Shown in pieces: positions 3,273-6,372 of a stretch of 24,000 nt of DNA. Position 1 is the stretch's first letter. Every line of letters starts with the position of its first letter. A model generated the notes under the pieces. It did no database searches, was not told the DNA's origin, and saw nothing but the letters and a program-made list of their open reading frames with translations. Position numbers and translations under genes: made by a program. The DNA comes from an uncultured bacterium (lineage in GTDB: Bacteria; Patescibacteriota; Minisyncoccia; Phycocordibacterales; CAIZIN01). The stretch lies in assembly GCA_903933085.1 (NCBI GenBank), contig CAIZIN010000047.1, forward strand, positions 2,885 through 26,884. Direction: 5' to 3'.

Positions 3273-3300
3273 ATTTTCCTTTCTTTTTCAATGTACTATT

Positions 3301-3364
3301 CTGTTTCGTCTTTTTCACACACTCGTGAGAGAGACTCATCAGTCCACCTCACAGATGGAGACAG
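3301..3364 (-). ncRNA. type-III hammerhead ribozyme, copy 1
   Basis: Minus strand: CUGUC | UCCAUC-UGUGA-GGUGGA | CUGAUGA | GUCUCUCUCAC-GAGU-GUGUGAAAAAGAC | GAAACAG. Full core is present (C3-A9, G12-A14, A15.1:U16.1, GUC triplet). Stems I and II are closed and stem III is open. Predicted cleavage after the C at plus-strand position 3360. Confidence 0.85.
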
Positions 3365-3366
3365 TA

Positions 3367-3394
3367 CCCCACATCGCGTAAGCGCGATGTGGGG
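3367..3394 (-). other. 12-bp GC-rich hairpin immediately 5' of hammerhead 1
   Basis: CCCCACAUCGCG-CUUA-CGCGAUGUGGGG on the minus strand, 2 nt upstream of stem III. No U-tract follows. Confidence 0.7.
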
Positions 3395-4061: not shown

Positions 4062-4087
4062 TTATTTGTTGTTTTCAATGTACTATT

Positions 4088-4152
4088 CTGTTTCGTCTTT
4101 TTCACACACTCGTGTGATTGACTCATCAGCCGGAGAAACTACTCCGGGACAG
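4088..4152 (-). ncRNA. type-III hammerhead ribozyme, copy 2
   Basis: Minus strand: CUGUC | CCGGAG-UAGUUU-CUCCGG | CUGAUGA | GUCAAUCACAC-GAGU-GUGUGAAAAAGAC | GAAACAG. The core is identical to copy 1 and stem I is fully compensated. Predicted cleavage after the C at plus-strand position 4148. Confidence 0.85.
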
Positions 4153-4168
4153 TGATTTGTTTTTTAAA

Positions 4169-4216: not shown

Positions 4217-4642
4217 TTATGTATTTAAGGGCGTAGGTTGGGCAAGAAAAATCGCGATATCTTTATCGCGTTTAGTTTCGACCAGTCTTTCTTTCAATGT
4301 CAGCAAGTGTAAGTGATGATGCATCGGTATGGATTTTAGTTTTATACTGTTTTCTATGATTACGTCGTAGTCTTCTTGTGCCTCCATTTTTATTTTTTTG
4401 TATTCTTTTATTTCTTTGTTTGTTAAACCACCCTCAGTTATGTGACGCTTTGGTGCTATGATGTGACTTTTGCTAGCGATCTCGTCGTAAGGAAATTCAT
4501 TTTCGACCACCTTCCAGTATTTATATTCTTTTAATGATTTTGATGAGCAGAAGAAGCACTTTGGCAGTGTTCCTGCTTTTATTTGCTCTTCGTATTTGAA
4601 GAGAGTTTCTGGTGTTCTTAATGTTTTTATTTTTCTTATCAT
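4217..4642 (-). CDS. HIT (histidine triad) family protein
   Basis: 141-aa ORF with the HHHLHLL histidine-triad motif and an upstream CFFC motif typical of HIT proteins. Confidence 0.8.
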   Translation of the reverse strand: MIRKIKTLRTPETLFKYEEQIKAGTLPKCFFCSSKSLKEYKYWKVVENEFPYDEIASKSHIIAPKRHITEGGLTNKEIKEYKKIKMEAQEDYDVIIENSIKLKSIPMHHHLHLLTLKERLVETKRDKDIAIFLAQPTPLNT

Positions 4643-4708
4643 CTTTTAATTCCACTCTGCGTTTTTTCGGACTTGTGACCGTCACCTTTTATTTGTTTTT
4701 GGTGGTCG

Positions 4709-4741
4709 CATTAAAATTGGAGGATGTTTTAATTCCTCCAA
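4709..4741 (-). terminator. terminator-like hairpin between the small ORF and the HIT gene
   Basis: Minus strand UUGGAGGA-loop-UCCUCCAA (8 bp) followed by UUUUAAUG. It may be an attenuator or stabiliser rather than a full stop, because no promoter is seen before 4642. Confidence 0.45.
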
Positions 4742-4749
4742 GAGTCGGG

Positions 4750-4926
4750 TTACCTCTTCCCCATGACCTCGTCGAAGCGTTCTCCAAATACCTTTTTAAG
4801 GAGTATTTGGTGACACTCGGTGTTCCATCTCTCGGCAACGCGACAGCTCTCGAGTTCTTCTGGGTCTGGTATGTGGTAGGCTTCACCTTCGAGATCAGTA
4901 AATTCGTCAGCATGGATGGTTGGCAT
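4750..4926 (-). CDS. small hypothetical protein, 58 aa (below the ORF-track size cutoff)
   Basis: ATG at 4926 lies 25 nt downstream of hammerhead 3. My translation is MPTIHADEFTDLEGEAYHIPDPEELESCRVAERWNTECHQILLKKVFGERFDEVMGKR*. It looks more protein-like than the overlapping 104-aa track ORF, which would start inside the ribozyme. Confidence 0.45.
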   Translation of the reverse strand: MPTIHADEFTDLEGEAYHIPDPEELESCRVAERWNTECHQILLKKVFGERFDEVMGKR

Positions 4927-4951
4927 GGTAGTGTGGGGTTGTAAAGAACGC

Positions 4952-5015
4952 CTGTTTCGTCTTTTTCTGCCACTCGGCAGAGAGACTCATCAGTCGGAAT
5001 CACATTCCGAGACAG
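4952..5015 (-). ncRNA. type-III hammerhead ribozyme, copy 3
   Basis: Minus strand: CUGUC | UCGGAAU-GUG-AUUCCGA | CUGAUGA | GUCUCUCUGCC-GAGU-GGCAGAAAAAGAC | GAAACAG. The core is intact. Stem I and distal stem II covary relative to copies 1 and 2. Predicted cleavage after the C at plus-strand position 5011. Confidence 0.85.
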
Positions 5016-5017
5016 AA

Positions 5018-5034
5018 GCAGGGGTAGAACCTGC
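5018..5034 (-). other. hairpin immediately 5' of hammerhead 3
   Basis: GCAGG-UUCUACC-CCUGC on the minus strand, 2 nt upstream of the CUGUC. Confidence 0.5.
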
Positions 5035-5084
5035 TAATTTGTTTCAGTTTCAGGAAGTTGTTTCTCCCTTTCCGAGACTGGAGG

Positions 5085-5456
5085 TCAATCCCAAGGGCGA
5101 GGTCCGTCTATCCTCACTCCTCCGCGTGGACCAATCCACACTTTGAGTTTGATTCCCTCAAACTCCGCCTCGATGGATCCACCCTTCTGAGTGACTCCAT
5201 GCTGGTCAAGAATCTCTCTTGCCCAGTCTTTTCTCCGTTGGTAGTAGGCAATTTGCCCGCTCGCGAAGATGTTACTCTCTTCGTTTCTACCAACCCGAGC
5301 CTCGAACTCGGCACCGCAGTCCTCGCATCGGACTTTTACATCGATTGTGCGAGCTGCAGTTCCGAAGCAGGGGGTTTCTGTAAGTTCAAAACCTACAGCT
5401 GTCCCACCGCATCGGCAGGTTCGGGTGACGTCTTCTGGCTGGATTACTGTTTGCAT
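5085..5456 (-). CDS. zinc-ribbon protein, 123 aa (CxCG...CxxCG)
   Basis: I start at the internal ATG at 5456 (MQTVIQPEDVTRTCRCGG...VRCEDCGAEF). The track's N-terminal extension to 5585 runs through the AT-rich promoter region. The segment is GC-rich, which explains the many overlapping shadow ORFs. Confidence 0.6.
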   Translation of the reverse strand: MQTVIQPEDVTRTCRCGGTAVGFELTETPCFGTAARTIDVKVRCEDCGAEFEARVGRNEESNIFASGQIAYYQRRKDWAREILDQHGVTQKGGSIEAEFEGIKLKVWIGPRGGVRIDGPRPWD

Positions 5457-5505
5457 AGTGTTGTTGGGGTGGTTGGTTGTGAATGTGCTGTTTGTTCTGA
5501 AGATC

Positions 5506-5511
5506 ATTATA
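5506..5511 (-). promoter_or_regulatory. candidate -10 box (TATAAT) for the ribozyme-containing operon
   Basis: TATAAT on the minus strand about 50 nt upstream of the ATG at 5456. No good -35 was found. Confidence 0.3.
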
Positions 5512-5579
5512 CTTGACAATATAAAAAATACTTGTGCAATCAAATGAATTTGTAACACTTTTTGAAATTTAACTAAAAC

Positions 5580-5607
5580 TTGCATATTTTTAGGGATATT
5601 ATATAAT
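5580..5607 (+). promoter_or_regulatory. candidate sigma70-type promoter for the TrmB-like gene
   Basis: TTGCAT, 16-nt spacer, TATAAT; about 30 nt upstream of the ATG at 5638. Confidence 0.4.
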
Positions 5608-5637
5608 ATAAATGTGTAACAAAAAGTTTCACTTTCT

Positions 5638-6372
5638 ATGAATAAACAACAAATATTGCAAAAAATAGGACTAAATAAGGACGAAAGTGCTATTTATCTA
5701 GCTCTTTTAGAGCTTGGTCCGTCCCATATTTCTACAATTTCGGATAAGACAAAAATCCATAGACCCCTTATTTACAAGGCTATTCCTTCCCTTTTGGAGA
5801 AAAAACTCGTAACACAAACACATAAAGAAAAAACTATACTTTATGTAGCGGAACCGCCAAACAGGCTTGAATCAATTTTTGAGGACCTGAAACTTGATTT
5901 ATTCGAGATTCTTCCAGATTTGGAGGATATATATGTGACAAATACAAAGAAAGGAATAAAAATAAGGTTTCTAGAGGGTCAAAGTGGCACAATGAGAGTT
6001 TTTGATGATGTTGTACGAAGTTTAAAGAAAGATGAGACCTTCTACCGAATAAGTTCCAACAAAGACGGACAAGAAAAAAGAGATAAGTATGTACCAAGAA
6101 ACTACAGCAGAATCCGCGACTCAAAGAAACTTCAGAGAATGGTTATCACAAACGAACAAACTGCGGAACATAAAGAAGATAAACTAGATAGATTTATAAA
6201 AGTAATGCCAAGTGACTTTGGTCTATTTGACCATAATGTTACACAAATTATCTACGGAGACAGAGTTGCGTTTATAGATTATAATTCAGAGACAGCCTTA
6301 ATAGTTGAGAGTAAAGCCATAGCCGACTTTCAAGCTCATGTTTTCAAGAATTTTTATAAAAAACTAAATTAA
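5638..6372 (+). CDS. TrmB-family HTH transcriptional regulator
   Basis: N-terminus LNKDESAIYLALLELGPSHISTISDKTKIHRPLIYKAIPSLLEKKLV is a TrmB-type winged helix. The gene is divergent from the ribozyme operon. Confidence 0.8.
   Translation: MNKQQILQKIGLNKDESAIYLALLELGPSHISTISDKTKIHRPLIYKAIPSLLEKKLVTQTHKEKTILYVAEPPNRLESIFEDLKLDLFEILPDLEDIYVTNTKKGIKIRFLEGQSGTMRVFDDVVRSLKKDETFYRISSNKDGQEKRDKYVPRNYSRIRDSKKLQRMVITNEQTAEHKEDKLDRFIKVMPSDFGLFDHNVTQIIYGDRVAFIDYNSETALIVESKAIADFQAHVFKNFYKKLN

Follow-up and report, generated by a model that had tools for sequence, protein, structure and literature searches.

A 58-codon open reading frame on the minus strand, here called ORF58, lies between two ribozyme motifs of different classes and is probably a real gene, namely a lineage-restricted, orphan small-protein cassette that would be expressed from a ribozyme-excised monocistronic RNA. 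ORF58 occupies positions 4750..4926 of the window, the 24,000-nucleotide stretch of DNA analysed here, with its ATG at 4926..4924 and its TAA at 4752..4750 in the open reading frame (ORF) listing. The encoded 58-aa product is acidic (14 D/E vs 7 K/R), and the GC content by codon position is 0.62/0.34/0.53. The two bracketing elements, a hammerhead at 5018..4949 and a twister at 4717..4649, are located on the same (minus) strand. Read along this strand, the order is zinc-ribbon gene, hammerhead, ORF58, hairpin plus twister, 141-aa gene, hammerhead, 200-aa gene, hammerhead, 192-aa gene, and P-loop kinase-like gene.

A 58-codon frame following the hammerhead had been proposed in a first-pass annotation of this DNA. 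The frame is borne out, its strand now being stated as minus, and the 8 nt that were noted between its stop codon and a hairpin (4741..4717) are found as described. The description of the frame as unannotated and likely missed by gene callers has to be withdrawn, as 3-4 public contigs already carry a gene call for exactly this 58-aa product.

Codon usage and the choice of reading frame

Two codon models were applied to ORF58. In the whole-genome model, for which 407 long ORFs from this genome served as the training set, the ORF58 frame ranks top of the six with 0.088 per codon, and the other five frames are negative. The genes beside ORF58 score 0.127 and 0.100 per codon. It counts against coding that the ORF58 score corresponds to the 3.5th percentile of native genes, a low rank that accords with a foreign, GC-richer composition (0.50 vs about 0.35). 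The cassette model was trained on 23 ribozyme-operon genes and picks the true frame in 22 of the 23 when each gene is left out in turn. Here, ORF58 reaches 0.35 per codon compared with 0.20±0.11 for true genes, which places it above 96% of the true cassette genes. Wrong frames (n=115) score -0.41±0.19 and none attains 0.35, nor does any of 1,878 non-coding ribozyme-slot windows, whose maximum is 0.12. The score is robust, remaining at 0.35 when the genes of the window are removed from training and at 0.23 without the ZnR/HIT families.

Two longer frames overlap ORF58: a 104-aa GTG-initiated ORF on the minus strand (5003..4689) and an antisense 110-aa ORF on the plus strand (4612..4944, ORF listing). 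It is extremely improbable that one of these is the true gene. Their greater length speaks in their favour, as does an antisense 75-aa ORF that is called across the hammerhead in a relative (ENA ERZ1426856), but the codon scores of both frames are negative and neither has a family match. The 104-aa ORF opens inside stem I of the hammerhead, as noted before, its start being the stem I loop; it ends in the twister, and the predicted cuts would sever both of its ends. Its AlphaFold2 model is almost devoid of secondary structure (pLDDT 50.2, pTM 0.15). The earlier preference for the ORF58 frame over this ORF is upheld by the negative codon scores and the poor fold of the latter. For ORF58 itself, AlphaFold2 run on the single sequence with no alignment yields a beta-hairpin and two helices with a pLDDT of 71.3, which in single-sequence mode is a weak indicator only, and a pTM of 0.42.

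The start codon can be compared with that of a cassette on contig C74 of the same genome. Homology between the two extends from the hammerhead across the leader and the ATG into the coding sequence, where it ends after four codons (ATG CCN ACC ATC). Within the common codons there is one difference, which is synonymous. The C74 protein shares 42% identity with a cassette protein of the same length in the related genome G034, and because it is conserved there, the ATG context common to ORF58 and C74 is regarded as a working start. The absence of a Shine-Dalgarno sequence before ORF58 counts against coding.

Searches for homologues of ORF58 were extensive. A word-indexed search of 5.8 billion proteins matched ORF58 with itself only, and an exhaustive phmmer search of 1.84 billion representative proteins returned, apart from ORF58 itself, the spurious P0002. 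The latter was rejected as a homologue, as it is the translation of a tandem repeat, and its match is confined to eight repeats of a 22-residue stretch. The tblastn check suggested in the first-pass annotation was carried out on 60 related genomes and gave no match below E 0.03. Metagenome, genome and viral contigs scanned with the back-translated sequence likewise gave no match, nor did comparisons with Pfam, PHROGs, NCBIfam, PADLOC and the PDB sequences, and a Foldseek search of the AlphaFold2 model against the PDB found nothing below E 4. The sole other DNA copy of ORF58 (locus L001) is 100% identical and hence offers no variation for dN/dS. That no homologue was found in any collection searched, from which purifying selection could be read, counts against coding. 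The contig ERZ1426856, known from gene calls only, encodes an upstream protein with 98% identity to that of the window, and no ORF58 is called on it; the flanking genes lie 4 nt closer together than here, a difference that is not a multiple of 3. The missing call is a mild negative, and the antisense ORF chosen over the hammerhead may have excluded ORF58.

Alternatively, the slot might have no coding role, being a spacer or what is left of a cassette that was replaced, with a 58-codon frame that is open by chance; only the ribozymes and hairpins would then matter. This fits the ORFan status of ORF58, its lack of a call in the 98% relative, and the fact that three of the six frames are open across the ORF58 stretch. 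Related slots are also non-coding, and in the genome G085 the twister-to-hammerhead slots (245-353 nt) contain no ORF. The chance of such a frame can be estimated, however: the 231-nt slot was dinucleotide-shuffled 20,000 times, and 1.4% of the shuffled sequences hold a sense ATG-initiated ORF of at least 58 codons, and 5.6% of these attain the ORF58 codon score, amounting to a joint chance of about 0.08%. Together with a cassette-model score that tops every non-coding control and a start context in common with the proven C74 gene, this makes the spacer reading unlikely. With ORF58 read as a gene, a low-confidence guess is that its small, acidic product serves in binding or inhibition, and that it possibly partners the zinc-ribbon protein encoded next to it.

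The bracketing ribozyme motifs and the proposed RNA processing

The upstream element (4949..5018, minus strand) is a type III hammerhead with an extended stem II, assigned to Rfam RF00008 (Hammerhead_3). The match scores 41.6 bits, and its E value is 4.5e-6 for a search of the window and 3.7e-8 for one of the genome. It is below the Rfam gathering score of 48.5 bits, largely because of a 12-nt insertion in stem II. The Rfam alignment spans all 54 model positions and comprises three stems, with stem III open. The core is intact (CUGAUGA...GAAA), with CUGAUGAG, CGAAAC and the cleavage triplet GUC all present. Among the 13 related hammerhead copies in the genome, stems I and II differ in sequence yet pair, owing to compensatory changes. 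Self-cleavage is predicted from the motif, with the cut after C5011 (GUC^U).

Immediately 5' of the hammerhead lies a 6-bp hairpin (5017..5035, minus strand), which, once the ribozyme has cut, would form the 3' terminus of the mRNA lying upstream. It is preceded by a 34-nt repeated module (5036..5069, minus strand) that has exact copies at C47:1296-1329 and C74:1156-1189, as well as 97% identical copies in the related loci L032-L034. It has the look of one part of a module that recurs at cassette boundaries.

On the other side of the hammerhead, a 22-nt C/A-rich leader (4927..4948, minus strand) without a Shine-Dalgarno sequence leads to the start codon of ORF58. The leader begins with GUUCUUU, a motif that follows most hammerheads of this genome. 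The other two hammerheads of the operon (4155..4085 and 3367..3298, minus strand) have ATGs 23 and 25 nt past their ends. The first-pass annotation had given the same spacing for all three ribozyme-gene pairs, and with 22, 23 and 25 nt past the ends of the Rfam matches this similarity stands; the figure of 25 nt quoted for ORF58 does not, as 22 nt are measured. In the genome as a whole, 12 hammerheads were assessable, and 10 of these have their first ATG 18-67 nt downstream at the head of an ORF that runs for 55 codons or more.

Downstream of ORF58, an 8-bp hairpin with a 9-nt loop (4717..4741, minus strand) is present in the minimum-free-energy and centroid folds and is the predicted 3' end of the ORF58 RNA. 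This is the hairpin of the earlier annotation, which was right about its presence; it is the front part of a hairpin-plus-twister unit whose twister had gone unrecognised. A role as an intrinsic terminator was considered and rejected, as a terminator scan did not flag the hairpin, whose U-run supplies the 5' strand of P1 in the twister. An equivalent hairpin lies ahead of the twister in the related loci L032, L035 and L036.

The twister-P1-like ribozyme itself (4649..4717, minus strand) matches Rfam RF03160 over the full model (1-68/68) with 51.5 bits (E 5.4e-9), under the gathering score of 67.2 bits. The window copy was aligned with seven related ones, three of them located in syntenic loci and the remaining four in two further genomes of the order, which gave an alignment of eight sequences. 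Compensatory double changes occur in 12 of the 18 predicted pairs, and the core blocks AAUGC, GGUYMCAAGYCC and AAAYGCAGAG are conserved. By family consensus, cleavage is predicted at U4713/A4712, a U-A step after P1. The twister was found in 3 of 151 genomes of the order, with one copy in the present genome.

These elements suggest a route by which ORF58 could be expressed. Transcription of the operon would proceed leftward from a promoter near 5600-5630. Cleavage by the hammerhead after C5011 and by the twister near U4713 would then release a monocistronic RNA of ~298 nt, consisting of an 84-nt leader that is mostly folded hammerhead body, ORF58, 8 nt, the terminal hairpin, and a few bases. 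The 5' end would carry a 5'-OH followed by the folded ribozyme body, while the 3' end would be the hairpin with a cyclic phosphate. Translation is proposed to start from the first AUG, 22 nt past the ribozyme, in the unstructured C/A-rich leader carrying GUUCUUU, and would yield the 58-aa acidic protein with its predicted beta-hairpin and two helices. Through cleavage, the stability and translation of the ORF58 message could be uncoupled from those of its neighbours. Circularisation of the excised RNA by RtcB was also considered and is judged unlikely, as no RtcB gene was found in the 96%-complete genome.

The same slot in related loci

The protein encoded upstream of the hammerhead is a 123-aa Cys-rich, zinc-ribbon-like protein (5085..5456, minus strand) with weak Zn_ribbon matches only. 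Its homologues show 98, 75, 68 and 65% identity. The gene starts at 5456 and not at 5585, as four homologues (including P0004-P0006, 65-75% identity) open at the equivalent MQT. The stretch 5457-5585, included in a listed 166-aa ORF, is a spurious N-terminal extension of 43 codons with a GC content of 0.30 and a negative codon score. A search of 400 genomes of the order for the zinc-ribbon gene gave one partial homologue, and neither JGI metagenomes nor viral contigs yielded a further locus. An unrelated 94-aa ORF comes after the hammerhead in G012, where the zinc-ribbon homologue is partial.

The gene order zinc-ribbon gene, hammerhead, slot, hairpin, twister and next gene is kept in three related loci. 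Their slots (L032:1038-1456, L035:5507-5888 and L036:5522-5916) are 380-420 nt long, have stops in every frame, and show no similarity to ORF58. Compared with shuffled sequences, they fold with z values of -7.7, -6.2 and -11.9, respectively. When the three are aligned, compensatory double changes are seen at 38 of 100 predicted pairs, and the conserved single-stranded blocks of the ~400-nt RNA include CAAAAUACCAGC and ACGGAGAAGCUG; the loop of the 3' hairpin reads CUUACCA. No Rfam match was obtained for these slots. The ~380-420-nt slot RNA is therefore put forward as a candidate new structured RNA that would be released by two ribozymes, always beside the zinc-ribbon gene. An nhmmer search gave no copy of it in the present genome, and its exact pattern found nothing in genome contigs.

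The hammerheads in front of the slot RNA (L032:983-1037, L035:5452-5506 and L036:5467-5521) read CCGAUGAG, with C for U at core position 4. This change is kept in all three loci, and the Rfam scores are 38-40 bits. These three hammerheads may be slow or regulated cleavers.

The relatives raise the question of whether the excised ~298-nt RNA of the window acts as an RNA, regulatory or as a ribozyme-released non-coding transcript that would be analogous in function to the ~400-nt RNA, with the ORF being incidental. The syntenic slots do hold structured RNA, and structure protects both ends of the window RNA. The window slot, however, has a folding z of -1.5, indicating no excess structure, and is without sequence similarity to the RNA of the relatives, while the frame-specific codon bias of ORF58 is strong. 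An RNA-level function is thus very unlikely, and reading ORF58 as a protein-coding cassette is preferred.

Hammerheads and twisters also occur together outside the zinc-ribbon loci. In G085 (L037 and L039; G085:C3:55216-59981), they alternate on one strand, and the hammerhead-to-twister slots hold two genes of 80 aa and 113 aa, membrane-/lipoprotein-like by look; by analogy, these speak for ORF58 being a gene. Among the related loci, the hammerhead-to-twister socket is conserved and its cargo variable, being either a small protein gene or an RNA. A stronger version of this reading holds that the hammerhead-slot-twister unit is a conserved excision socket with interchangeable cargo, ~400-nt RNA in three relatives and the ORF58 mRNA here; it is considered unlikely.

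The module is missing in G034. There (L031:1051-2499), the TrmB gene directly adjoins the histidine-triad-like gene, and the GC-richer zinc-ribbon/hammerhead/slot/twister module is not found. Between the window and G034, the operon head shows an insertion/deletion polymorphism.

Operon setting and relation to known ribozyme clusters

The genome has a size of 837 kb at 96% completeness, with relatives in the order ranging from 0.5 to 1.1 Mb, and this size fits an ultra-small, CPR-type bacterium. The operon is headed by a divergent regulator gene of the TrmB family (5638..6372, plus strand; Pfam TrmB, E 1.6e-14), and the same divergent TrmB arrangement is found in G034. Downstream of the twister follows a 141-aa histidine-triad-like gene (4217..4642, minus strand) with an HHHLHLL motif, which starts 6 nt past the twister; homologues of it occur in 30 out of 301 genomes from this order. 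The part of the window from 4650 to 5585, comprising the zinc-ribbon gene, hammerhead, ORF58 and twister, forms a GC-richer block (0.47-0.54 vs about 0.35 for the genome).

The genome contains 13 hammerhead-like motifs in three clusters. Three further hammerhead clusters are located at G000:C47:143-1275, to the left of the window, at C10:1786-2716, and at C74:744-2248, and their cassette ORFs encode 55-161 aa. In one C47 slot (about 600-1220), no ORF starts with an ATG close to the ribozyme.

Clustered hammerheads that flank single genes or short gene blocks have been described in bacterial and prophage polycistronic transcripts, and cutting of the long transcript into single-gene mRNAs was proposed as their role (Perreault et al. 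2011, PMC3088659). The present operon resembles these clusters in that it has several hammerheads, each followed by a small, variable and mostly unannotated gene. In contrast to them, the hammerheads here belong to type III and carry a long insert in stem II, ORF58 is bracketed by two ribozyme classes, and the host is an ultra-small genome instead of a recognisable prophage. A phage family search of this locus gave no matches. Bacterial twisters are known to share gene neighbourhoods with hammerheads; the reason is unexplained, and processing of polycistronic RNA has been suggested (PMC6765202). The window is similar in this respect, both ribozymes lying within 300 nt in one transcript. It differs from the bacterial twisters reviewed there in that its twister variant is sub-threshold, rare in the order, and always paired with an upstream hairpin. 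The ORF58 locus belongs to this published, unexplained pattern of ribozymes flanking small genes.

Synthetic ribozyme insulators such as RiboJ are engineered elements that remove the 5' leader and give a cistron a defined 5' end whatever lies upstream. ORF58 shares with them a self-cleaving ribozyme motif just upstream of the start codon. In contrast to the engineered elements, the arrangement here is natural and includes a 3' ribozyme as well, with activity predicted from the motifs.

Taken alone, the ORF58 protein is of modest interest, being another small orphan in an ultra-small bacterium; the more interesting lead is the ~400-nt structured RNA of the related loci, outside the window. If it is true that the slot RNA and ORF58 share a role, e.g., by partnering or antagonising the zinc-ribbon protein, an RNA and a protein would have been exchanged naturally in one ribozyme-defined slot, and the socket reading would provide an experimental handle on the purpose of bacterial hammerhead and twister ribozymes. 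Since 2011, it has been unsettled why bacteria and mobile elements put self-cleaving ribozymes between small genes. The ORF58 locus is a clean, compact case of this arrangement, with a single tiny gene between two different ribozyme classes. Related loci keep the socket and vary its cargo, which is a protein gene or a large structured RNA, and the ~300-nt unit of the window lends itself to easy tests of cleavage, of message stability, and of translation that lacks a Shine-Dalgarno sequence.
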